A stretch of 64,000 nt of DNA from Chitinophagaceae bacterium (GTDB lineage Bacteria > Bacteroidota > Bacteroidia > Cytophagales > Cytophagaceae): NCBI GenBank assembly GCA_028288405.1, contig JAQBNS010000034.1, positions 27,221-91,220 of the forward strand, written 5' to 3'. A program made the position numbers and the translations under genes. Under the pieces are notes generated by a model, which saw only the letters and a program-made list of their open reading frames with translations, did not search any database and was not told where the DNA came from. This document shows, piece by piece, positions 17,760-58,948 of this stretch. How positions within the stretch are numbered: position 1 is the first letter of the stretch; each line of letters begins with the position of its first letter.

Positions 17760-18755
17760 TTATGCGTTGTTGTCCATTAATATTTTGAAAGCTTCGTAGG
17801 CTTTACCTGATTGTATCGATTCGCGGGCAATTTCTACGGCATCCAACATGCTTGTTCCCGGTTTGGCGCACACGATAGCCGCGGCGGCATTGGCCAGCGT
17901 GACGTCGTTTTGTGCTTTCGTTCCCTTATTTTGTATGATGTTCAAGAAAATGTGTGCGCTTTCTTCCACGTTGCTACCACTCTTGATTTCATCGTGTACA
18001 AACGTATTCATACCTAAATCCTGCGGTGTATAAATATGTTCTCCCCGATTCGTAATCAGTTTGAACGGCGCTGTCAATGAAATTTCATCGTAGGTATCCA
18101 ATGAATGGGCGATGCAATATCTTTTATCTGTTTCCGCATAAATATAACCGTACAAACGAGCCAACTCCAGACTGAATACACCCACCATCTGTTTTTTCAC
18201 AAAAGCCGGATTAATCATCGGTCCCAGCATGTTGAAGAATGTTTTTACACCAAGTTCCCTGCGAATCGGAGCCACATTTTTCATGGCCGGATGAAACAAT
18301 GGGGCATGCAGGATACAGACTTTTGACCGCTCGATTTGTTTCTTCAGTACATCGATGTCATTGGTAAACTTATAACCCAGAAATTCCATGACATTCGAAG
18401 AGCCTACCGGAGAAGACACGCCATAATTGCCATGCTTGGCCACATATATACCGGCACCCGCAGCTACAAAAGAAACGGTAGTGGAAATATTGAACGTGCT
18501 TTTTCCATCGCCACCTGTTCCGCACAAATCCATCGGATCAAATTCTGCCACCGGCACAGGAATACACAATTCCAGCATCGCATCACGGAAACCTGCCATT
18601 TCATTTACCGTTACACTGCGCATCATGAAAACGGTCATGAATGCTGTCGTTTGAGAAGGATTGATTTCTCCTCTCGCTATGCGGAGCATGGCTGTCTTCG
18701 CATCTGCTCTGCTCAGTGTTTTATGTTCGATCAGTTGTTGTAAAACCTCTTTCAT
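17760..18755 (-). CDS. trpD: anthranilate phosphoribosyltransferase
   Basis: CGTGGDG..TFNIST and KHGN motifs. Confidence 0.95.
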   Translation of the reverse strand: MKEVLQQLIEHKTLSRADAKTAMLRIARGEINPSQTTAFMTVFMMRSVTVNEMAGFRDAMLELCIPVPVAEFDPMDLCGTGGDGKSTFNISTTVSFVAAGAGIYVAKHGNYGVSSPVGSSNVMEFLGYKFTNDIDVLKKQIERSKVCILHAPLFHPAMKNVAPIRRELGVKTFFNMLGPMINPAFVKKQMVGVFSLELARLYGYIYAETDKRYCIAHSLDTYDEISLTAPFKLITNRGEHIYTPQDLGMNTFVHDEIKSGSNVEESAHIFLNIIQNKGTKAQNDVTLANAAAAIVCAKPGTSMLDAVEIARESIQSGKAYEAFKILMDNNA

Positions 18756-45050: not shown

Positions 45051-45171
45051 CGTTTGAATGTTTAGTTGTTGCTGTTTGTTATACCTTTAATTGAAATCAG
45101 GAAGACAAGCCTTATGCCAATCTTTTTCCAAAAAAACTTCCTTCTTCCAATCTTTTCTTAATTTTATAATT

Positions 45172-45693
45172 ATGATGAAACCATTTAACCTCAAATCCTG
45201 GATCGAAACGAACAGGCATTTGCTTAAGCCTCCGGTAGGCAACCAACAGGTGTACAAAGGGAATGACGATTTTATTGTTATGGTTGTTGGAGGTCCTAAT
45301 GCACGCAAAGATTTTCACTACAATGAGAGTGAAGAATTATTTTATCAGTTGGAAGGCAGCATCAATATCCGCATACAGGAAGAAGGGAAATTTGTGGATG
45401 TTCCTCTACACGAAGGTGACCTGTTTTTATTACCGGCAAAAATTCCTCATTGCCCTCAAAGACCCGCCAATACTATAGGTTTGGTGATTGAACGCAATAG
45501 AAAAGCTGGGGAAAAAGATGGCTTTTTTTGGTTCTGTGAAAAATGTGATCATAAATTATACGAAGAGTATATCGACCTTACAGACATCGTGAAGGAATTA
45601 CCCATAGTGATGAATAAGTTTTACAATTCGATAGAACTGCGTACTTGTAAGTCTTGCGGTACGGTAATGGAACCTCCTCAAAAATTAAATTAG
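45172..45693 (+). CDS. nbaC: 3-hydroxyanthranilate 3,4-dioxygenase
   Basis: Start MMKPFNLKSWIE. Cupin core with HYNESEELFYQLEG and PHCPQRP. C-terminal CxxC...CxxC rubredoxin-like site (CEKC, CKSC). Confidence 0.9.
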   Translation: MMKPFNLKSWIETNRHLLKPPVGNQQVYKGNDDFIVMVVGGPNARKDFHYNESEELFYQLEGSINIRIQEEGKFVDVPLHEGDLFLLPAKIPHCPQRPANTIGLVIERNRKAGEKDGFFWFCEKCDHKLYEEYIDLTDIVKELPIVMNKFYNSIELRTCKSCGTVMEPPQKLN

Positions 45694-45694
45694 C

Positions 45695-46993
45695 ATGGCG
45701 CCGTCAATACGTTCTACTGCTTTATCTTTATCCAAAAAAGCATTGGCACTCGATAAGTCCGATGTTTTGGTGGCTTTTAAAAAACAGTTTCATGATCCGA
45801 AAAAACTCGGCAAAGATCGTATCTATTTCTGTGGAAATTCTCTAGGGCTGATGCCTAAAGGCGTGGATCGTGCCTTGCAACAGGAATGCGAAGACTGGGC
45901 AAACTGGGGTGTAGAAGGACATTGGAAAGCTAAAAATCCTTGGATCGATTATCATAAACCTTTCAGTAAACTCCTGGCTCCTTTATGCGGTGCGAAGGCT
46001 TCAGAAGTAGTAGCGATGAACAGCCTTACTGTAAATCTGCACCTGGCACTCGCCAGTTTTTACAGACCCACCAAAAAGCGCTTTGTTATTTTGTACGAAG
46101 CCAATGCTTTCTCTTCTGATTTATATGCGTTGGAATCGCTGATCAAACTTCGTGGCTTGAACCCAAAGCTTTGTCTTTATCCAGTAGATCAATTGGACAG
46201 CAAGAGCGTTATCAAAGCCATTCATGATATAGGAGAGCAACTCGCACTGGTTTGTTTAGGTGGTGTTAATTATTACTCGGGAGAATTGCTTGATCTGAAA
46301 AAAATTACCGCTGCTGCACATCAGGCCGGCGCGCTAGCCGGTTTTGATCTGGCACATGCCATCGGTAATGTACCGCTGAAATTGCACCATTGGAAAGTAG
46401 ACTTTGCGGTATGGTGCACTTATAAATACCTCAACTCAGGACCAGGTGCTGCAGGTGGTTTGTTTGTGCATGAAGTCCATGGCAATGATAAAAATATACC
46501 GCGCATGGCCGGTTGGTGGGGTCATGAACAAAGCGAACGTTTTGGAATGAGGCCCGGTTTCAAACCCATGAATGGCGCAGAAGGATGGCAATTGAGTAAT
46601 GCCCCCGTATTCAATATGGCTGCGCAGCGGGTGGCTCTAACACTCTTTAAAGAAGCTGGTTTAGCGAATGTATACCGCAAAGGAAAAAGTATGGGAGACT
46701 TCTTCTTAGAGTGTCTTACCACATTGGGGACTCCTGAACAAAATGAGAAACGTGTTTATGCTTTCAGCATCATCACTCCATTGGAAAGTACCCGCAGAGG
46801 TTGTCAATTATCTTTGCGTATTCACGATAAAAAAGGCAGGGCACTCTTTACTTTATTGGAGAAGGCCGGTATCATCGGTGACTGGCGCGAACCGGATGTT
46901 ATTCGCTTAACACCTGTTCCTTTATACAACAATTACAAAGAAATATTTCATGTAGCGAAAATACTATGTGAGAAAGCATACCTGATCCGGTGA
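45695..46993 (+). CDS. kynU: kynureninase
   Basis: ATG 1 nt after the upstream TAG. PLP-enzyme pattern (YFCGNSLGLMPK, DFAVWCTYKYLNSGPG, GWWGH). Confidence 0.9.
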   Translation: MAPSIRSTALSLSKKALALDKSDVLVAFKKQFHDPKKLGKDRIYFCGNSLGLMPKGVDRALQQECEDWANWGVEGHWKAKNPWIDYHKPFSKLLAPLCGAKASEVVAMNSLTVNLHLALASFYRPTKKRFVILYEANAFSSDLYALESLIKLRGLNPKLCLYPVDQLDSKSVIKAIHDIGEQLALVCLGGVNYYSGELLDLKKITAAAHQAGALAGFDLAHAIGNVPLKLHHWKVDFAVWCTYKYLNSGPGAAGGLFVHEVHGNDKNIPRMAGWWGHEQSERFGMRPGFKPMNGAEGWQLSNAPVFNMAAQRVALTLFKEAGLANVYRKGKSMGDFFLECLTTLGTPEQNEKRVYAFSIITPLESTRRGCQLSLRIHDKKGRALFTLLEKAGIIGDWREPDVIRLTPVPLYNNYKEIFHVAKILCEKAYLIR

Positions 46994-46994
46994 T

Positions 46995-48347
46995 ATGGAA
47001 GATAGAAGACAAACGGTTTTTATTGCCGGTGCAGGATTAGTCGGTTCTCTGCTGTCCATCTTTCTTGCAAAAAAAGGATTTGCCGTACAGGTATTGGAAA
47101 AAAGAGCCGATCCCCGCCAAAATCTGCGAAACGAAGGCCGATCGATTAACCTCGCTTTGAGTCACCGTGGATTAAGGGCGTTGGAAGCAGCAGATGCTCA
47201 GCTTCCTGAACGCATCTTAGCAGAAGCTGTTCCTATGTATGGCCGGCAAATGCACGATGAACAAGGTCACCTGTCCTTCCAACCTTACAGCAGCACCAAA
47301 GCATGCATTTATTCTGTATCCCGCTCCCAGTTAAATAATTGTCTGATCAATGCGGCAGAGCATCAGGGTGTTTCTTTTTTATTTGAACACAGCATAGAAG
47401 AGACGGACTTTGCGTCGAAAACTATTCTTCTTTCTCATCAAGACAAATCGTTCACTATAGAGGCAACGGTACTTATCGCTGCAGACGGTGTATTTTCTAA
47501 GGTGAGAAGCTCTCTTGAAAAACAAGGTCTCTGTCATTCCCGTCTTGAAAAAATAGATCACGGATACAAAGAACTCGACATTCCTGCCGAGAAAGGTTCG
47601 CTGCTTGCACCACAAACTGCGCTGCACATCTGGCCAAGAGGTGAGTACATGATGATCGCTTTGCCAAATTTTGACAAGAGTTATACCGGCACGTTATTCC
47701 TGCCTTTCAACGATGAAGACCTTTCTTTTCAGGAGTTGCATGACGAAGCATCCGTCATGCGTTTCTTTCATGCACATTTTCCTGATGCTTCAGTTTTATT
47801 TCCTGATTTAGCGAAACAATACTTTTCCAATCCCACTTCGTTTCTTGCCAATGTATTTACAGACCGTTGGGCCTTTGGCGAATGGTTGCTGATTGGAGAC
47901 GCGGCACATGGCATTGTTCCTTTTTACGGACAAGGTATGAATGCAGGCTTTGAAGATTGTCGCCTCCTGGATGAATTACTGACACAACACCATGATCACT
48001 TTGAAGTCGCTTTTCAAACGCTTTGTGACAATAGAAAGAAAGATACGGATGCCATAGCCCGACTGGCCATGGACAACTTCATTGAGATGAGGGATTTGGT
48101 CGCAGACGACCATTTTCTTCTTCAGAAAAAAATAGAAGGCGCATTAAGTAAAGCCTTACCAGAGCAATGGAAAACGTTATACAGTGAAGTAACTTTTTCG
48201 GATACACCATATAGCGAAGCGTTAGCGAGAGGACTGAAAAATCAAGGCATCATGAATGAGATTATGAGTGATCCATCATTAGACCTGAAGCGTTGGGAAG
48301 AAAAAGAAGTATGGGATTTAATCCTTAAAAAAGTAAGTGGCCAGTAA
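46995..48347 (+). CDS. kmo: kynurenine 3-monooxygenase (FAD-dependent)
   Basis: GAGLVGS FAD motif, RSINLALS, GDAAHGIVPFYGQGMN. Confidence 0.9.
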   Translation: MEDRRQTVFIAGAGLVGSLLSIFLAKKGFAVQVLEKRADPRQNLRNEGRSINLALSHRGLRALEAADAQLPERILAEAVPMYGRQMHDEQGHLSFQPYSSTKACIYSVSRSQLNNCLINAAEHQGVSFLFEHSIEETDFASKTILLSHQDKSFTIEATVLIAADGVFSKVRSSLEKQGLCHSRLEKIDHGYKELDIPAEKGSLLAPQTALHIWPRGEYMMIALPNFDKSYTGTLFLPFNDEDLSFQELHDEASVMRFFHAHFPDASVLFPDLAKQYFSNPTSFLANVFTDRWAFGEWLLIGDAAHGIVPFYGQGMNAGFEDCRLLDELLTQHHDHFEVAFQTLCDNRKKDTDAIARLAMDNFIEMRDLVADDHFLLQKKIEGALSKALPEQWKTLYSEVTFSDTPYSEALARGLKNQGIMNEIMSDPSLDLKRWEEKEVWDLILKKVSGQ

Positions 48348-51080: not shown

Positions 51081-51764
51081 ACAAACCATTACTACCACAA
51101 CATGATGATGATTTGTCTTTACAAGACATTTGCTATTCCAATGAGATAAAAGAAAAGCCTTCCGTCCAGCATCTATTCATGCGGAGCGGGAGGCTTTATA
51201 TGTTTTGCTTTGAAAATGCTTAAGCGATGCTTGCGGCAAAAATCAGCACAGACAAGAAAATACTAATGAGTGCACTGACAAGATTCAATTTTTTTTTCAC
51301 GTTGGATAAATTAAGCTGTAAAATTTTGGTTTCGCTCTGCCCCTTCGTTGCCTTTTTCACTTGGAAAGGCCTGCTATACAAGGAGTAGTACTTTGATAAT
51401 ACTCAGATTTAATTTGATTATCCTAAGACTTACCACTACTACAAAAAATAATCTTATTCTTACAAAAAAGTTGGTTTAATAACCCATTCGAGGTTTTTGA
51501 GGGATAAATAGAGAGAGATAAAGGCGTGCAATATTATTCTTTATTGAAAAAAACAAACGATGTGTGTAAGAATTGTTTTTTTTTCTTGTATTACTTTATG
51601 AAAAGCATAAACGATGCTTGAAACCCAGTAGGCGTTGTGCGAACAGAGAGAACAATAAAGCTTGATTGATCATATCAGTTTTTGAATGGAATAGGGGGTT
51701 ATTTGAATTTCATTGGTATTGAAATTGTCCTTGTCTTTAAAAAAATCGTACATTATCGGGTATT

Positions 51765-52358
51765 TTGTCCTCACCCTGTAATACGGATGTTATTTTGAAA
51801 TCTAAAGACCAAGACATATTAAGATCGATCAAGAACGGAGATGACCGTAAAGCACTGGAGCAGATCTATAAATCTATGCTCCCGAAAATCAAAAAGCTGG
51901 TCAACGTCGGAACGGAGCGAGAAGAAGATGCTAAGGATATTCTTCAGGAAGCCTTGCTTGTGTTTTATAAGCAGGTGATGACGAATAAATTTGATGAGAA
52001 ATACGAGATAGCCGGCTTCATTTACACGGTAGCAAAAAATCTGTGGCTCAATCAAATTAAGAAGAACCAGCGATTTGTGCAGCTCAACGAAAGTTCTGTA
52101 GCAGACATCAGGGATACCAATATATTGGACCAAATTTCGTTGGAAGAACGAGAAGCACTGGTCAAAAAATTATTTGATCAATTAGACGATAAATGCAAAC
52201 AGCTTCTTACCTATAGTTTATTCGAGGGATTAAACATGAAGGAAGTCGCCGAAAAAACAGGTCACACCAGTGCCAATGCAGCAACAGTAGCCATGCATCG
52301 GTGCAAGAAGTACCTCATGGAACAGGTAAAGAAGTATAAAACTACTTATGTCATTTAG
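51765..52358 (+). CDS. ECF-type RNA polymerase sigma-70 family factor
   Basis: Region 2 (DAKDILQEALLVFYK, FIYTVAKNLWLN) and region 4 HTH (GLNMKEVAEKTGHTSANAATVAMHRCKKYL). Start uncertain (TTG 51765 or TTG 51795). Confidence 0.85.
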   Translation: MSSPCNTDVILKSKDQDILRSIKNGDDRKALEQIYKSMLPKIKKLVNVGTEREEDAKDILQEALLVFYKQVMTNKFDEKYEIAGFIYTVAKNLWLNQIKKNQRFVQLNESSVADIRDTNILDQISLEEREALVKKLFDQLDDKCKQLLTYSLFEGLNMKEVAEKTGHTSANAATVAMHRCKKYLMEQVKKYKTTYVI

Positions 52359-52361
52359 AAA

Positions 52362-53222
52362 ATGAGACCAGAATTCGAAAAATATAGCCTCATCGATAAT
52401 TACCTTGGCGGTAAGCTTTCAGAGCAGGAGAACAGTGCGTTTGAGCAAAGCATGGCAGAAGATTCTTCTTTACGTGAAGAAGTGTTCGATCGTAAAGTAG
52501 TGAATGAAATCCTTATCGAAAAAAGATTCTTTGATATCACCAGCGGACTTCGTACTCCTGCCGGTGTAACACGCACCTTATTCTCTAATTCTGTAAAACG
52601 TTTTGTAGGTATCGGTGCCGCAGTAGCTGTGATCCTCTTTACTCCTTATTATTTCAGTAAACGCGCTGAACAGCCCGTAGAAAACACCAGCGGTCCGGAA
52701 CAAAAATCAGAAGCGGTTGCTCCTGTTATAAAACAACAAGAAGAGCCTAGTCAGGACGTGGTGTTAGAAGAACAAGTACAAGAAAATACAGAAGCAGTAG
52801 AAACAACTCCGGAAGAACAACCTGTTGTTGCAGAAGAAAAAGTAATTGAAAAAACACCCATTGCGAAAAAAGCGACAACAGTAGCTCCTGCTGCCAAGAA
52901 GAAGAAAAAAGCGAAAAGCTACATCCTTGAAATTCCAATCGATGATCCTTCCGCTAAAGGACATCAGGCCAACTCTTATGTGTTTAACCCTGCTAAAGGT
53001 CAAAGCTGGAAAATTCCTATGCACAATCATAAGGAAGCTACGGTTACGATTTTTAACAAAGAAGGAAATGAAGTTTTCACTTCTTCTGTTGAGCAAGGAA
53101 AAAACAATACCTGGAAGGGTACTTCTACTGATGGAACCAAGCAAAAAGCAGGCAAATACGCTTATTTACTTGATTTTGGAAATGGAAAGATTGAGCACGG
53201 ACATGTTACAATTAATCCGTAA
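52362..53222 (+). CDS. anti-sigma-like membrane protein with E/P/Q-rich linker and C-terminal T9SS type-B-CTD-like domain
   Basis: Starts 3 nt after the sigma gene. N-terminal YLGGKLSEQENSAFEQSMAEDSSLREEV is typical of Bacteroidota anti-sigma N-termini. One TM (FVGIGAAVAVILFTPYYF). The C-terminal approx 85 aa align with the CTD of the next gene. Confidence 0.7.
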   Translation: MRPEFEKYSLIDNYLGGKLSEQENSAFEQSMAEDSSLREEVFDRKVVNEILIEKRFFDITSGLRTPAGVTRTLFSNSVKRFVGIGAAVAVILFTPYYFSKRAEQPVENTSGPEQKSEAVAPVIKQQEEPSQDVVLEEQVQENTEAVETTPEEQPVVAEEKVIEKTPIAKKATTVAPAAKKKKKAKSYILEIPIDDPSAKGHQANSYVFNPAKGQSWKIPMHNHKEATVTIFNKEGNEVFTSSVEQGKNNTWKGTSTDGTKQKAGKYAYLLDFGNGKIEHGHVTINP

Positions 53223-53274
53223 ATAATCCATAAATTAGATCCGGACTCTCAGTCGTTTGTACGACAACCCTTTA

Positions 53275-55077
53275 ATGAGTAAAAGATTTTACCGGATCTT
53301 ATCTTTCATTGTTTTTTTTTCTTTCACGCTAGTTGACTCCACGGCACAGCGATTTGCATCTGTGCCTGATAAAACATATAGCGCGCAAGAGGTTAAATCT
53401 CTTGACGCTCTTTCCTCCTCCAAACGAAGCAGTTCCAGAACGACAGCAACCGCCCTAACAGCAACTGTTACTGATGCCAAATGTTTTGGATCTTCTTTAG
53501 GCAAAATCACTTACAGCATCTCAGGAGGTATTCCTCCCTACCGTTATCAATGGAGCAACGGAATCAACGGATACGTTTATGGTAATTGCTGGTACACTAT
53601 AAAAATCACTAATCCCGGTTCCGCAACGCTTACCGATTATCAGGTCATGGTCTCCGTTCCATATGCTTCTGCAGCAGGGATGAATGCTGACTTCTCCAAT
53701 GTTTCTTTTTCTGACACAACCAATACAGTGTCCTACAATTTTTGGAAAGAAAGTGTAAGCAGTAACATCGGTGTCTTTTGGATCAAGATGCCCTCCTTCC
53801 CTCCGGGTGATTCTTACATTAGAGTTTCTTTCTGTTCCACCAGCTCCACCTCACTAAGCAATGGCTTAGCTACATTTGATTATTTTGATGATTTCGATGA
53901 TCAGGACATCAGCGACTGGACACATACCTGCAACGATGTAAATTATCCGGATGAAGTTTGTGATGCCAGTGTGCAACAAGTCAATGGGTCCGATTATGCC
54001 GCACAGCTCAGCAGCTATGCCCATTGCATTGGTGGCACTCCCCCAACTCCCACTGTAGGAGTCAACGATAAACTCTCTAAAAGTATAAGTCTTCCTAACG
54101 GACAATATTGGGTAGATATCAGTTCTAAGTTTCTAGTTTGCCTTAGAACCATCTGCAGTGATTCTGCCCGCATCTATTCCAGGATTTATCTGGACAATGT
54201 TTTCTACTCCGCTTTTTTCTTAGAAAAAAATACAACATGCGGTTGCGCATTATCAGGCTGGACACAGATCAGGGTCAATGGACCGCATATGAATACAGGC
54301 ATTCCCGTTGCCTATGACCTTCGCACAGAACTTACAGATTGCGGAGAAGGAAATATCCAATACGATAATTTTAGAATACGCAAATGGTATGTTGATCCGG
54401 ATGTAGTGATTGACTATCCTAAAACATTACACATCGACAACTTAGTGGCAGGAGATTATACGCTCACCGTAACAGATGGTGAAGGTACAGTGGCAACGGA
54501 AACCTATACGATCCATGGGCCTGATCTTCCGCAGTCCAGCGATTATATTACATGTGGACAAAGCCCTGCTGTACTTAACGCCATAGGCACTTATACTACT
54601 TTTAAATGGTACGATGTACCGAGTGGTGGAAGCAGTCTTTATACAGGAACTACCTATACAACCGATAGCCTGGAGCATGATCAACTGTTTTATCTCACAG
54701 GTGTCGGTATTGACGGCTGTGAGAGTAGTCCCCGAGTTGCGGTAAAAACTACCGTGCTCAATCCTGCCTCTTCCAATGATTGCCTAATCGTGTATACCGG
54801 CATCTCCCCTAATGGAGATGGATTAAATGAAAGTTGGGAAATCAGAGGCATAGAATCTTATCCTCACAACAAAGTGAAACTCTTCGATCGTTGGGGGAAC
54901 ATCGTATTTGAAAAAGAATTCTATAACAACCAGATGGAGACTACCTGGAAGGGGAAATCCAATAAAGGTCTTTCTAAAGGGCAGGATCTGCCCAATGGAA
55001 CTTATTATTACGAAATCGACATTAGAGGTTTAAACAAACCTTTGTCAGGCTTTGTGATCCTTAACAGAGAACAGTAA
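53275..55077 (+). CDS. T9SS type-B (gliding-motility-associated CHU_C) sorting-domain cargo with SprB repeat and DUF2341-like region
   Basis: Start MSKRFYRILSFIVFF. SprB-type repeat CFGSSLGKITYSISGGIPPYRYQWSNG. C-terminal ISPNGDGLNESWEIRGIESYPHNKVKLFDRWGNIVFE...GTYYYEI...GFVILNR. Confidence 0.85.
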   Translation: MSKRFYRILSFIVFFSFTLVDSTAQRFASVPDKTYSAQEVKSLDALSSSKRSSSRTTATALTATVTDAKCFGSSLGKITYSISGGIPPYRYQWSNGINGYVYGNCWYTIKITNPGSATLTDYQVMVSVPYASAAGMNADFSNVSFSDTTNTVSYNFWKESVSSNIGVFWIKMPSFPPGDSYIRVSFCSTSSTSLSNGLATFDYFDDFDDQDISDWTHTCNDVNYPDEVCDASVQQVNGSDYAAQLSSYAHCIGGTPPTPTVGVNDKLSKSISLPNGQYWVDISSKFLVCLRTICSDSARIYSRIYLDNVFYSAFFLEKNTTCGCALSGWTQIRVNGPHMNTGIPVAYDLRTELTDCGEGNIQYDNFRIRKWYVDPDVVIDYPKTLHIDNLVAGDYTLTVTDGEGTVATETYTIHGPDLPQSSDYITCGQSPAVLNAIGTYTTFKWYDVPSGGSSLYTGTTYTTDSLEHDQLFYLTGVGIDGCESSPRVAVKTTVLNPASSNDCLIVYTGISPNGDGLNESWEIRGIESYPHNKVKLFDRWGNIVFEKEFYNNQMETTWKGKSNKGLSKGQDLPNGTYYYEIDIRGLNKPLSGFVILNREQ

Positions 55078-55078
55078 A

Positions 55079-56005
55079 GTGTATTTATATAAAACGTTTT
55101 CGTTTTTCGCTGTAACGCTCACCTTCTTACTGTTTCAAACCGGATACAGTCAGCAAGGTTCTTTGTACTCGCAATATATGTTTAATGGATTGGTACTTAA
55201 TCCCGCCTATGCAGGAAGTCAGGAGTCAATGAGCATCTCCGCTTTGTTCAGGAAACAATGGACAGCTTTGGACGGAAGTCCTTCTACCGGGATCTTCTCG
55301 GCGCACGCTCCATTGAATAATAAAAAAATAGCCTTGGGGCTGCTCTTTGTAAACGACAACATCGGAGTGACACAACAAACAGGCGGTGATCTTATGTATG
55401 CTTATCGGATTTCTTTTTCGGAAACACGTAAATTATCCTTGGGCTTGCAGGCAGGCTTTGCCAGATTATCCTCTCAATACAGCAGCTTGACAGTGAAAGA
55501 TCCCAATGATCCTTCCTTTTCTTCTTCTGGTGCATACAATTACTTGTATTTTGGAACAGGCATTTACTATTCTTCCAAACGGTTTTATGCCGGACTATCC
55601 GCTCCGCATGCCAATCGCATCACACTGGGACAAACTTTTTCAACGGATGAAAATAGCCAAAGCAGAAATTACTTTCTGACCACAGGCTATGTATTCACCT
55701 TGTCACCTTCCTTCAAGCTCAAACCCAGTACACTTATCAAAGCTACCGATGGCTGGTCTTCTCAAATAGATTTTAATTGCACCTTATTGTACGAAGATGT
55801 ATTTTGGATTGGAGTATCTTATCGCACCTTCTCCGCACTTAGCTTTATGGCAAAAGTTCAACTTACCAATCAACTCAGTGCCGGTTATGCTTACGATAAC
55901 GCGTTGGGCGATTTGAGCGTAATAGGAGGAGGTGGGCATGAGTTCATGTTGACTTATAATTTTTCTTTTTTCAAATCTAATACGGTAACCCCACGCGATT
56001 TCTGA
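55079..56005 (+). CDS. PorP/SprF-family type IX secretion system membrane protein
   Basis: Hallmark N-terminus QQGSLYSQYMFNGLVLNPAYAG. About 300 aa beta-barrel pattern. GTG start 1 nt after the cargo stop. Confidence 0.9.
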   Translation: MYLYKTFSFFAVTLTFLLFQTGYSQQGSLYSQYMFNGLVLNPAYAGSQESMSISALFRKQWTALDGSPSTGIFSAHAPLNNKKIALGLLFVNDNIGVTQQTGGDLMYAYRISFSETRKLSLGLQAGFARLSSQYSSLTVKDPNDPSFSSSGAYNYLYFGTGIYYSSKRFYAGLSAPHANRITLGQTFSTDENSQSRNYFLTTGYVFTLSPSFKLKPSTLIKATDGWSSQIDFNCTLLYEDVFWIGVSYRTFSALSFMAKVQLTNQLSAGYAYDNALGDLSVIGGGGHEFMLTYNFSFFKSNTVTPRDF

Positions 56006-56006
56006 T

Positions 56007-58091
56007 ATGAAAGTTAAAGGGTGTATTGTTCTGCTGTTCTTTATTTCAATGTTGAGTAAGCCTCTGCAGGCTCAACATAAAAATATTTTTACGCTGACCC
56101 AAAGTACTTTTAAACAAGCAGAAAAATACTACAGGCAAAATGATTACATGTCAGCCATTACCTTGTATGAGAAAGCCTTGTTAAAAGACAGACGCAGACA
56201 AGGATTGATCAAATTGCGCCTGGCCAATAGTTACCTGATCCTTCACCATACGAAAGAAGCAGAGTTTTGGTACAAAGACATCATGAATACCAAATCTCTG
56301 ATCGGTAAACAAGATGTCATGAACTATGCGATGATTCTGCTGTCCAACAAAAAATACGAAGCCAGTAAAGCATGGTTTGAGCATTATATTAAAGAATACG
56401 GCACAGATAGTTTAGTCTTGGGTAAAATAAAGGGTATCGATCAAATCGCTTCGTATTATGAAGACTCCTTGAGTAAACCTATTCATGCTTTGTCCATTAA
56501 TACTTCCTATTCTGAATTCAGTCCGGTGTTTTTCGGTAAAGGAATCGTTTTTACTTCCTCCCGGCAGGCAGAAAGCGTCGTAAAATTGAACAACGCCAAA
56601 GACAATAAAGCTTTTCTGGATTTGTACTACAGTGAGTTTAAAAAAGACCAAACATTGTCTGAGCCCAAACCCTGGCATCATGCGATCAATAGTAGCTATC
56701 ACGAAGGGCCCATTGTTTTTTACAGCAACGACACTAAAGCAATCTTCACGCAAAACTTTTCGCTCGAAAAAAAACAAGAGAAAATTGATACGCGTCATTT
56801 AGGATTATTCAGCATAGAGAAGGAAGGTGAAAACAATTGGAGTGAAGCCGTGTCTTTACCTTTTAATAAGGCGAATTATTCCGTGGCACATGCTGCCATC
56901 AGTCAAGACGGCAAGCTGCTTTACTTTGCCTCCAACAAACCCGGAGGCTATGGAGGCACAGACCTTTACACGACACGGTACAACGGTACAGCATGGGATG
57001 AACCCATTAACCTCGGACCATCCATTAACACCTCCGGTAACGAGTTGTTCCCTTATCTTCTTCTGGATAGTATTTTATATTTCTCTTCTACCGGTCATGC
57101 CGGACTGGGAGGACTTGATATCTATCGCACCTCCTCTTGCACAACAGGATTTTGTGAGCCGGAGAATCTTGGTTATCCGATCAACTCCAACCAAGATGAT
57201 TTTGGAATCGTGTTCGCCCCTACTTATAAATCCGGCTACTTCAGCAGCAACAGAATTAACGGAGGCAGCGACGACGACTTGTTTGCTTTTGAAATCATCA
57301 ACGTCTACTTCAAAGGAAACATCAAGGCTAAGTTGAAGAGCGTTCCCCTTGCTGATGTCACGTTGAGCTTTTCATTGAAAGACAAAGAAGTAAAAACAGC
57401 GAAGACCAATGAACGCGGAGAATTTTTAGTCGTGTTAGATCCGAGCGAAGAGTATACGTTGTCAGTCTTTAAAGAAACATTCAAACCATACACTACCAAA
57501 ATTTCCACCAGACACCGCAGCGAGGCGGATAGCATCACACAAGAAATTCTATTGGAAAAAGAAGTGAAGACCTTAGTCAAGGGTGTCGTCAATCAAAACG
57601 ATAGCGTAGTGACTAAATTGAAAATTATCGCACTGGAAACTTCTTCTAAACATCAGGACACGATCTTCTCGGATGAGAAAGGAGAATTTTTTTATGAAGC
57701 AGATCCAGGATTGGAATACTATTTCTATGTAGATACCCGCTATTCGTTTGGAGATGTTTTATTGGAGCCCAGCAAAAAAACGAAAGGAACTTTCCTTTTG
57801 TATACAAAAATAGAATTGCACAACTACGACACCACTTTTGTAAATGTATTGGTAAAAGATAAAAATCTACCGGCTGCTAATGCCTTGGTCGTATTAGAAA
57901 ATACGGTGACGCAGAAAAGAGACTCACTCTATACCAACAAAAAGGGCATGATCCGTTTTGTCGCAAAATCTTATGCGGACTATAACATCAGCAGTCGCTT
58001 AAAAAATAAGCATGCTACACTTTCTGATTTTAATTTGTTGACCAACCGGGTGAGGACATTGGTGCTGCACCTTAAGGAAGAAGAGGAATAA
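56007..58091 (+). CDS. TPR / TolB-like PD40 beta-propeller / carboxypeptidase-regulatory-like domain protein
   Basis: N-terminal TPR-like helices. Repeated PD40-type motifs (SEFSPVFF, HEGPIVFYSND, DGKLLYFASNKPGGYGGTDLY, GLGGLDIYR). The C-terminal beta-sandwich repeats lack an obvious OmpA domain. Confidence 0.7.
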   Translation: MKVKGCIVLLFFISMLSKPLQAQHKNIFTLTQSTFKQAEKYYRQNDYMSAITLYEKALLKDRRRQGLIKLRLANSYLILHHTKEAEFWYKDIMNTKSLIGKQDVMNYAMILLSNKKYEASKAWFEHYIKEYGTDSLVLGKIKGIDQIASYYEDSLSKPIHALSINTSYSEFSPVFFGKGIVFTSSRQAESVVKLNNAKDNKAFLDLYYSEFKKDQTLSEPKPWHHAINSSYHEGPIVFYSNDTKAIFTQNFSLEKKQEKIDTRHLGLFSIEKEGENNWSEAVSLPFNKANYSVAHAAISQDGKLLYFASNKPGGYGGTDLYTTRYNGTAWDEPINLGPSINTSGNELFPYLLLDSILYFSSTGHAGLGGLDIYRTSSCTTGFCEPENLGYPINSNQDDFGIVFAPTYKSGYFSSNRINGGSDDDLFAFEIINVYFKGNIKAKLKSVPLADVTLSFSLKDKEVKTAKTNERGEFLVVLDPSEEYTLSVFKETFKPYTTKISTRHRSEADSITQEILLEKEVKTLVKGVVNQNDSVVTKLKIIALETSSKHQDTIFSDEKGEFFYEADPGLEYYFYVDTRYSFGDVLLEPSKKTKGTFLLYTKIELHNYDTTFVNVLVKDKNLPAANALVVLENTVTQKRDSLYTNKKGMIRFVAKSYADYNISSRLKNKHATLSDFNLLTNRVRTLVLHLKEEEE

Positions 58092-58097
58092 AAAATT

Positions 58098-58157
58098 AGG
58101 GACGAGCCAGAAGCTAGGAGGGACGACTCATTCCCTAGCTCGTCCCTCCTAGCTCCC
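58098..58157. repeat. R1 palindromic intergenic repeat
   Basis: GGGACGA-GCCAGAA-GCTAGGA-GGGACG (58098-58125) with the complementary arm ccctagctcgtccctcctagctccc (58133-58157), between convergent stops 58091 and 58160. Confidence 0.85.
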
Positions 58158-58159
58158 GG

Positions 58160-58948
58160 CTATATACATAGGTCTATAAACGCCTTCACCACCGTCAGGC
58201 ATTCTTCCTTCTCCTCTACCATGCCCATGTGCCCTACGTTATCAAGGAAGTAAACCAAACTCTTTGCGGGAAGATGAAATTGTTCCATGCTTTTTTCCAA
58301 TGGAATAGAAGTGTCTTTTTTACCGGCTATAAACAATACCGGAACTTTACTTTCCTTTAACACCGCCGTGCGATCCACTCTTTCCTTCATGGCTATGGTT
58401 GCAGCAACGGCTCCTTCTTTAGAACTTAGTCTTGCTTGTTGCTTGATCTTACCGATTTCCGCTGCCAGTCTCTGTCTGTTGCCTGCATAAAATAAAGGCT
58501 CCACGAAATTGTCTGTAAATGCAGGAACACCTTTGTCTTGTATGTATTGCGCTACTTTATCGCGGCTTTGTTTTTTCTCTTCGTTATCGGCAAAAGCTGT
58601 AGAATGAAACAAGCCCAAGCCATTGATGCGCTCAGGATATAGTTCGGCAAAAGCCAATCCTACATAGCCACCTAATGAGTGTCCGATAAAAGTAATAGGT
58701 TCTTCTGATGGTACAAGTTGCTCCAATAATTCATGTACCCTGCGCGCGTAATACTCGATACTTACGGCTTCTCCATACTCGGGAGATGAATTCCCAAATC
58801 CAGGAAGGTCAGGTACTATGACACGGTAACGCAATGCGAGGTCCTGGCTATAGTCACTCCAAATGGTATGGTCTTCACAAAACCCATGAACAAGCACTAC
58901 CGTTTTGCCTTTTCCCGCTGTATGATAGGAGAGCGTATCGTTTTTCAT
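58160..58948 (-). CDS. alpha/beta-fold hydrolase
   Basis: HGF oxyanion region, nucleophile elbow GHSLGG, C-terminal His region. Confidence 0.85.
   Translation of the reverse strand: MKNDTLSYHTAGKGKTVVLVHGFCEDHTIWSDYSQDLALRYRVIVPDLPGFGNSSPEYGEAVSIEYYARRVHELLEQLVPSEEPITFIGHSLGGYVGLAFAELYPERINGLGLFHSTAFADNEEKKQSRDKVAQYIQDKGVPAFTDNFVEPLFYAGNRQRLAAEIGKIKQQARLSSKEGAVAATIAMKERVDRTAVLKESKVPVLFIAGKKDTSIPLEKSMEQFHLPAKSLVYFLDNVGHMGMVEEKEECLTVVKAFIDLCI

Follow-up and report, generated by a model that had tools for sequence, protein, structure and literature searches.

Operons in which a type-B cargo of the T9SS (type IX secretion system) is encoded with a PorP/SprF protein and a PorE-like protein are already known, with Fjoh_3952-3951-3950 and four others in Flavobacterium johnsoniae and the PG1035-PorP-PorE complex in Porphyromonas gingivalis (PMC12618676, PMC9143113, PMC12635249), and trans-envelope signalling by extracytoplasmic function (ECF) sigma factors and their anti-sigma factors is known as well. 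In this study, we analysed a 64-kb window of DNA, that is the whole stretch from contig JAQBNS010000034.1 of a Chitinophagaceae bacterium, whose positions serve as coordinates throughout, and focused on a locus in which genes for an ECF sigma factor and a putative membrane anti-sigma factor directly precede such a triplet (Table 1). The anti-sigma protein was found to end in a domain resembling the C-terminal domain (CTD) of type-B cargo, and comparison with other genomes links sigma/anti-sigma pairs of this type to PorP/SprF and type-B cargo genes. Apart from the PorXY-SigP system of P. gingivalis, little is known to us about how individual T9SS cargo is regulated and how CTDs are recognised in the periplasm.

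Genes three to five of the locus have the same content and order as the described triplets, namely a type-B CTD protein, its cognate PorP/SprF and a protein with tetratricopeptide repeats (TPR), a propeller and a carboxypeptidase regulatory-like domain (CRD), and the PorP, being without the Cys-x-Cys of SprF, fits the static class and not the gliding class. Unlike in those triplets, an ECF sigma/anti-sigma pair is dedicated to the unit. Signalling by a periplasmic T9SS CTD toward an ECF sigma factor, even from a CTD tethered to the inner membrane, has a precedent in PorA-PorY/PorX-SigP of P. gingivalis (PMC12152298), where the CTD is of type A, belongs to a secreted protein and activates a histidine kinase, core T9SS genes being controlled, whereas the CTD in the window is type-B-like, is fused to the anti-sigma protein, would need no two-component system and likely has one cargo operon as its output. 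Both FecA-FecR-FecI and the SusC-like/anti-sigma/ECF systems of Bacteroides likewise combine a single-pass anti-sigma factor whose periplasmic domain can reach an outer-membrane barrel encoded next to it with a sigma factor that controls neighbouring surface-function genes. Here, however, the barrel is a PorP/SprF protein and not a TonB-dependent transducer, DUF4974 is absent, no FecR-family domain was matched in the window protein or in 39 members of its family, and the contact with the barrel is presumed. FlgM, the anti-sigma factor of sigma-28, resembles the window protein in carrying an export signal of the same class as the substrates under its control, and by analogy expression could be gated by secretion competence, although FlgM is soluble and fully exported via type III secretion, whereas the window protein appears to be anchored in the inner membrane, carries a degenerate signal and would need binding or cleavage for release. 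In the literature outside subscription-only papers, we found neither an anti-sigma factor with a T9SS CTD nor a sigma pair dedicated to a type-B module.

The protein encoded by the second gene had been labelled anti-sigma-like in the initial annotation, a label that its N-terminal module fits but that overlooked the terminal CHU_C type-B-like CTD. In the AlphaFold2 model, three N-terminal helices (residues 3-15, 21-33 and 35-63) have predicted local distance difference test (pLDDT) values of 82-96 and a C-terminal beta-sandwich (204-284) has values above 90, whereas residues 102-200 are disordered. The C-terminus matches CHU_C (PF13585) over residues 213-283 with an E-value of 1.4e-10 and 41.6 bits, above the cut-off of 27, and in an alignment of 28 close homologues the N-terminal ~100 residues are highly conserved, the linker is variable and the C-terminal ~100 residues are again conserved. 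Foldseek matched the sandwich to Ig-like domains, among them the CTD of NucA as captured in the T9SS translocon and those of PorZ and PorU, and at the level of sequence profiles the domain has a further match to the C-terminal end of GhpA, a grappling-hook protein of the T9SS. Matches to the whole model were dominated by the sandwich, so that the fold search does not inform on the N-terminal helices, and PDB sequence searches with the N-terminus gave no match. No Sec signal peptide is present at the N-terminus, and the protein can therefore not be an ordinary cargo; since the canonical loop of its CTD is also replaced, as described below, it should not be filed as T9SS cargo at all. Instead, the protein should reside in the inner membrane with an N-in/C-out topology that places its CTD-like domain in the periplasm, and in the model a single transmembrane helix (76-101) is followed by a predicted extracytoplasmic portion made of the linker and the beta-sandwich, as is typical of membrane anti-sigma factors.

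Assignment of this protein as an anti-sigma factor comes from its N-terminal module, in which zinc ligands are absent. A hidden Markov model (HMM) built from that module hits the protein encoded directly downstream of sigma in most of the more distant relatives, with E-values down to 9e-17, and many of these partners of distant sigma factors match the anti-sigma models NF052375, NF010501 and zf-HC2 (E down to 1.5e-7). Their C-terminal periplasmic domains are unrelated and comprise TPR, cytochrome c and trypsin-like protease domains; the same module is fused, for example, to a DegS/HtrA-like trypsin protease domain in L038 (8547-9674) and to a c-type cytochrome domain in L073 (8583-10331). Membrane anti-sigma factors are normally built in this modular way, from a common N-terminal module and varied periplasmic domains. 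Because the module is shared with related sigma partners that do match anti-sigma models, we accept the second protein as an anti-sigma factor, which would bind and inhibit the sigma factor. Its gene lies downstream of the sigma gene in the same orientation, with a gap of 3 nucleotides (nt) here, and adjoins or overlaps the sigma gene in all 26 related loci that reach that far.

When 1.84 billion representative proteins were searched with a profile, 1546 matches were returned, of which the best 150 were considered. These 150, each representing one cluster at 50% identity, are 205-413 residues long, nearly all of them match at both ends, and in many a SprB-like repeat is inserted ahead of the CTD. 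CHU_C was matched by all 39 family members that were aligned, and zf-HC2 by three of the 39, at E 0.06 or worse. As judged from these profiles, the succession of helices, transmembrane segment, linker and CHU_C domain defines a family that is largely unannotated, its members being named in the sources either 'hypothetical' or 'gliding motility-associated C-terminal domain-containing protein'.

The connection of this family to T9SS is carried by the genomic surroundings of related sigma genes. A scan based on the sigma alignment, with one genome per species, yielded 80 loci, and iterated HMMs were used to look in them for PorP/SprF, CHU_C and PorE-like domains as well as for the N-module of the anti-sigma factor. 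The 28 closest sigma loci (at least 32% identity), which include near-duplicates (L021-23, L026/28) and three repeats of loci already compared and so represent somewhat fewer independent cases, derive mostly from metagenome-assembled genomes labelled Cytophagales, Cytophagaceae or Sporocytophaga. A CTD-bearing anti-sigma gene is present at 26 of the 28 and a PorP/SprF gene at 24; of the two loci lacking the former, one is truncated at the end of its contig, and only the N-terminal module is encoded at the second. By comparison, none of the 52 more distant sigma loci has a CTD anti-sigma or PorP/SprF gene, and PorP, CHU_C and PorE-like matches are absent within ±8 kb of all of them. On this genomic evidence, the sigma/CTD-anti-sigma clade has an exclusive linkage to genes for PorP and for type-B cargo. 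The initial annotation, which viewed the sigma/anti-sigma pair as a dedicated part of the triplet, had considered that homologous pairs elsewhere might never be linked to T9SS components, and the 24 loci with a PorP/SprF gene speak for the linkage it proposed. The comparison of synteny across genomes that it suggested as a check recovered the identical five-gene order in relatives (L001 and others), where the pair is conserved together with the cargo-PorP/SprF-PorE-like unit.

Three gene orders were distinguished. In the window clade (L001, L004-6, L012, L015) the order is sigma, anti-sigma, DUF2341 cargo, PorP and OmpA-less PorE-like gene, and since it persists in L001, with other flanking genes and an anti-sigma protein of only 48% identity, the arrangement is not due to chance. 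In a far clade (L017-L037) the PorP gene is divergent and immediately upstream of sigma at 18 of 21 loci, the anti-sigma gene follows sigma, and at most loci the next gene encodes a protein with a CHU_C-like end, ~550 residues long and with leucine-rich repeat (LRR) and Ig domains where tested. In the third order (L090, L092) a cargo-PorP operon is divergent from sigma-anti-sigma. These comparisons indicate that sigma, the anti-sigma with its CTD, PorP and type-B cargo are kept together across all three orders. Triplets without a sigma pair also exist (L007, L008), which makes the pair an addition to a unit already known.

Some genomes contain further variants. The locus L009 (identical to L014; 1397-3998) is a rearranged copy in which the sigma gene is duplicated in tandem, with the first copy followed by a 73-residue remnant of the anti-sigma N-module and the second by a full anti-sigma gene with CTD and by PorE-like, astacin-family protease and DUF2341 cargo genes. 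A DUF2341-type cargo-PorP-PorE-like triplet without its own sigma pair was found in L008 (2-5460) and L035 (2-5296), in each case ~3 kb from a far-clade sigma/anti-sigma/LRR-cargo/PorP module, and both kinds of type-B unit thus cluster in these genomes.

Comparison of the anti-sigma CTD with cargo CTDs revealed both shared and distinct features. Its most conserved residues (G235, W251, G253, G264, Y266 and G280) all fall in blocks that are also conserved in cargo type-B CTDs. In a tree of 56 CTDs the anti-sigma CTDs form one clade, apart from the L034 copy, that is separate from both cargo clades, and the window anti-sigma CTD is ~30% identical to that of the neighbouring cargo; the possibility that it is a recent copy of its own cargo's CTD was rejected on both grounds. 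The distance matrices for PorP, for sigma and for the anti-sigma and cargo CTDs correlate with one another at r of 0.8-0.93, and the partial correlations given sigma are 0.55 for PorP with the anti-sigma CTD versus 0.52 for PorP with the cargo CTD, a mirror-tree result that we regard as suggestive only.

The interpretation that we favor, to which we would give about an even chance, is that the ECF switch is coupled to the T9SS shuttle or translocon through the CTD of the anti-sigma factor. The sigma factor would transcribe its own five-gene operon from the candidate promoter at ~51724-51751, and the N-terminal helices of the anti-sigma factor would hold it at the inner membrane while a degenerate type-B CTD is displayed in the periplasm on a flexible tether of ~100 residues. 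There the PorP/SprF shuttle of the cassette, a complex of PorP with the PorE-like protein or the T9SS translocon served by PorP could recognise the CTD, and the amount of sigma released might be set by that engagement, by competition with the CTD of the real cargo or by later cleavage. Adhesin output would thus be matched to the availability or occupancy of the export and anchoring apparatus. Such coupling is plausible because type-B CTDs bind their cognate PorP/SprF proteins (PMC9143113, PMC12618676), and because in PorA-PorY a CTD attached to the inner membrane can still serve as a signalling ligand in the periplasm (PMC12152298). A narrower version, which we put forward tentatively and would not call probable, is a transcriptional checkpoint in which the decoy CTD on its periplasm-spanning tether is captured or pulled by the cognate PorP/SprF at the translocon, so that sigma would be freed and the adhesin genes transcribed only when a functional export and anchoring site is free.

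Several observations weigh against such coupling. The anti-sigma CTD scores 20.2 bits with the NCBIfam model TIGR04131, under the type-B cut-off of 35, and the PNGDGxND loop is missing from anti-sigma CTDs, which have F-x-P-x-x-G-E-x-W family-wide in its place. In F. johnsoniae, none of five type-B motifs is dispensable for secretion, and the pairing of cargo with shuttle is specific (PMC12618676); if PNGDGxND is one of the five, the anti-sigma CTD may engage T9SS non-canonically. A CTD that keeps the conserved strands without the canonical loop could conceivably bind without being exported. The mirror-tree signal is confounded by shared descent, as all components co-diversify; the direct match of the protein to an anti-sigma model is weak (NF052375, E 0.005, 16.8 bits versus a cut-off of 100); and the TTGTCC...TCGTAC promoter motif of the window clade departs from the consensus of the far clade and shows poor conservation in L001. 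Contact of the anti-sigma CTD with PorP, the PorE-like protein or the translocon is something we infer, as are the sign of the signal and the release of sigma by proteolysis.

The same features bear on other explanations, the main one being an ordinary envelope-signal ECF pair in which the CHU_C-like domain is a generic Ig-like or FlgD-like sensor of a polysaccharide, peptidoglycan or a surface cue and makes no contact with T9SS. In its favor, the TIGR04131 score is below cut-off and the PNGDG loop is missing, FlgD_ig is also matched by 34 of the 39 family members, the fold search returned many unrelated Ig-like sandwiches, and related anti-sigma factors bear many different sensor domains. This explanation would leave unaccounted for the linkage to PorP/SprF and type-B cargo genes at 24 of 28 versus 0 of 52 loci across three gene orders, the presence of CHU_C in every one of the 39 members, and the position of the top conserved residues in blocks common to cargo type-B CTDs. 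Because the genomic linkage is exclusive, we consider a generic sensor unlikely, while giving it appreciable weight.

Two further explanations appear less probable. The architecture is equally compatible with a sensor of secretion stress, in which the CTD mimics unsecreted cargo and, following an RseA/DegS-like logic, is attacked by, or titrates, a periplasmic quality-control protease or chaperone when cargo builds up, and there is a precedent in the discussion of PMC12152298, according to which PorXY-SigP signalling may increase as CTDs accumulate in the periplasm. However, the cassette contains no conserved protease gene, and the presence of an adjacent PorP gene in addition to the cargo gene would be left unexplained, so that we judge a stress sensor improbable. 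Finally, the second protein might not be an anti-sigma factor but a co-transcribed, membrane-anchored T9SS accessory or cargo protein, as the weak matches to NF052375 and zf-HC2 and the names given to its relatives could suggest. This seems very improbable to us, since the gene is always immediately downstream of the sigma gene with a few-nucleotide gap or an overlap, the protein has segment 76-101 as its sole hydrophobic stretch and no Sec signal peptide, and its N-terminal module is homologous to those of related sigma partners that match anti-sigma models.

The three proteins encoded downstream of the sigma/anti-sigma pair resemble those of known type-B units, with one departure. The cargo qualifies as a type-B substrate: its CTD exceeds the cut-offs (CHU_C, PF13585, 82.7 bits; TIGR04131, 49.8 bits, cut-off 35) and has the canonical SPNGDGLN motif, its N-terminus MSKRFYRILSFIVFFSFTLVDSTAQ reads directly as a Sec signal, and a PorP/SprF gene is its neighbour. 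Orthologues of the cargo are 597-601 residues long and thereby support the ATG at 53275 as its start. The PorP matches PF11751 with 260.7 bits over profile positions 3-273 of 273 and TIGR03519 with 263.2 bits (cut-off 90.55), and its membership of the PorP/SprF family is thus based on a full-length match above cut-offs. PDB sequence searches with the cargo and with PorP gave no match. A Cys-x-Cys in the periplasmic C-tail of SprF forms disulfide bonds with GldK and links SprF to the gliding track (PMC12635249); the C-tail of the window PorP, ...FFKSNTVTPRDF, has no Cys, and a C-terminal Cys-x-Cys is absent from it and from all linked PorP-like proteins.

The departure concerns the last protein of the unit. 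Its profile content of TPR, PD40 and CarboxypepD_reg resembles that of PorE, and the models for PorE and CHU_0125 match positions 19 to about 510 of about 640 only; the PorE match stops at position 499 of 648 and reaches 244.8 bits versus a cut-off of 600. No match to PF00691 (OmpA) was found in it. AlphaFold2 (pLDDT 85.7) predicts a signal peptide, TPR (27-151), a propeller (159-429) and three beta-sandwiches (433-690), with residues 433-690 all beta-sandwich and without an alpha/beta OmpA fold, and Foldseek recovered a TolB-like propeller and CnaB/pilin-like sandwiches. Profiles and model therefore agree with the initial annotation that the protein lacks an OmpA end and terminates in carboxypeptidase-regulatory-like sandwiches. 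The PDB sequence search returned TPR noise only. Homologues at 40% identity or more are all without PF00691, and most of the more distant ones have it. PorP likely binds to the propeller of P. gingivalis PorE, in which OmpA_C is an essential domain (PMC12773672), whereas the window protein has neither OmpA_C nor a lipobox and carries two extra beta-sandwiches instead. From the predicted presence of TPR, propeller and CRD without OmpA, we classify it as a PorE-like paralogue and not as PorE, and by analogy it probably still binds PorP without tethering it to peptidoglycan. Lacking both the Cys-x-Cys tail and OmpA, the PorP/PorE-like complex would be neither track-driven nor wall-anchored in the known ways.

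Table 1. Features of the sigma/anti-sigma/type-B locus in window coordinates, with the parts of each protein listed beneath it
Feature	Position	Strand	Remarks
Upstream block	51562-51625	+	~170-230 nt before sigma start; near-identical in L004, L005, L011 and L012
Candidate ECF-type promoter	51724-51751	+	TTGTCC-N16-TCGTAC; ends 44 nt before probable sigma start
ECF sigma factor	51795-52358	+	187 residues; longest open reading frame 51765-52358, from TTG at 51765
Putative membrane anti-sigma factor	52362-53222	+	286 residues
Cytoplasmic helices	52368-52550	+	Residues 3-63; AlphaFold2
Transmembrane helix	52587-52664	+	Residues 76-101; only hydrophobic segment
Disordered acidic/Pro/Lys linker	52665-52961	+	Residues 102-200
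CHU_C type-B-like CTD beta-sandwich	52962-53219	+	Residues ~201-286
Type-B T9SS cargo, putative lectin-like adhesin	53275-55077	+	600 residues; open reading frame from 53257 or 53275
Signal peptide		+	
SprB repeat	53458-53562	+	
DUF2341	53689-53922	+	
Ig_7	54520-54756	+	
Type-B CTD	54787-55059	+	
PorP/SprF-family outer-membrane shuttle/anchor	55079-56005	+	308 residues; 1 nt past cargo stop codon
PorE-like periplasmic protein	56007-58091	+	694 residues
Signal peptide		+	
TPR	56085-56459	+	
Beta-propeller	56481-57293	+	
Three CarboxypepD_reg/CnaB-like beta-sandwiches	57303-58076	+	
Hairpin between convergent genes	58105-58161		-37.5 kcal/mol; z -6.1; 0/200 shuffles as good

The sigma factor itself belongs to the ECF (group 4) sigma-70 factors, having regions 2 and 4 only, a length within the ~170-200 residues of the group and scores above model cut-offs: TIGR02937 matches residues 30-184 with 66.3 bits (cut-off 42.9), Sigma70_r2 (PF04542) reaches 34 bits (cut-off 24) and Sigma70_ECF (PF07638) 27.6 bits (cut-off 21.1), with the region 4 models on their own staying under cut-off (17.9 versus 25.7). 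Its classification as an equivalog of the PG0214/GFO_1088 family or in the Sig70_bacteroi1 subfamily was rejected, at 62-65 bits versus 126-130. Fourteen of 15 homologues are 187-197 residues long and most 187-191, and for this reason the TTG at 51795 is most likely the start.

The candidate promoter upstream of sigma is conserved in L004, L005, L011 and L012. Searching the rest of the 64 kb with the motif gave one further match, at 17771, which is compatible with chance, and did not reveal a wider regulon; no second copy was seen in the 52 nt that separate the cargo gene from the anti-sigma gene. Of 22 unique regions upstream of far-clade sigma genes, 18 contain a GTTTAC(T)n...(T)CGTA motif at a distance of ~20-70 nt from the gene, compared with 3% of random windows, and by sequence it appears to occupy the position equivalent to that of the window-clade candidate. 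At far-clade loci with a divergent PorP gene, only the strand on the sigma side was found to carry the motif, which suggests that the shuttle is expressed independently and that the regulated unit is sigma, anti-sigma and cargo. In L008, the far-clade motif occurs two more times next to the module (11180 and 11791, plus strand), one of these copies just upstream of a gene for a PL11 rhamnogalacturonan lyase with CBM6, a hint that the sigma regulon may extend to polysaccharide-degrading enzymes. The conserved block further upstream, which is also partly conserved in L016, contains a 6-bp hairpin, AAGCAT (51603-51608) with ATGCTT (51614-51619), whose pairing is kept in L004 in spite of substitutions. 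The block might act as a leader element or operator or as a second promoter; its fold energy is not significant (z -1.1), it has no Rfam match, and the 684-nt leader as a whole folds no better than shuffles.

Inspection of the locus as a whole agreed with the initial annotation on the layout, that is five co-oriented genes separated by gaps of 3, 52 (counted from the ATG at 53275), 1 and 1 nt and preceded by 684 nt of non-coding DNA, and profile searches bore out its domain calls for the ECF sigma factor, the SprB/DUF2341/type-B cargo, the PorP/SprF and the TPR and PD40 protein. The hairpin beyond the PorE-like gene, which separates it from a convergent alpha/beta-hydrolase gene, is probably a bidirectional terminator closing the operon, and no convincing terminator was found inside the five-gene unit. 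Tight spacing, the lack of such an internal terminator and the strong terminal hairpin fit a single transcript, and we presume the five genes to be co-transcribed. Scans for sigma-70-type promoters and for terminators gave nothing above shuffled expectation, and the sole Rfam match in the locus was a spurious one to mir-641 on the terminal hairpin. An inverted repeat, GTCGT-ttgt-ACGAC, lies within the gap between the anti-sigma and cargo genes (53254-53267), without a T-run after it, and might be a processing or attenuation site. Farther upstream, three plus-strand genes (45091-48347) appear, solely from synteny with annotated L005 and L006, to encode 3-hydroxyanthranilate dioxygenase, kynureninase and a kynurenine-monooxygenase-like flavoprotein of the kynurenine route to NAD.

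The presence of a CTD on the anti-sigma factor shifts the view of this locus from a regulator that sits beside a triplet to one that probably reads the secretion apparatus. If the coupling is true, a family of anti-sigma factors with a type-B-like CTD, encoded with PorP/SprF and cargo, would directly connect secretion state to gene expression, and at least 150 protein clusters (at 50% identity) would be reannotated as anti-sigma factors. A reporter dependent on the sigma factor could serve the study of CTD-shuttle recognition, and the locus could yield an orthogonal sigma/anti-sigma pair for engineering of Bacteroidota. The OmpA-less PorE-like protein would imply that modules of the PorP-PorE type need no peptidoglycan tether. 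Should the checkpoint also prove true, the system would represent a counterpart of FlgM export that is tethered to the membrane, and an anti-sigma factor with a secretion-signal domain as its sensor would be seen for the first time.

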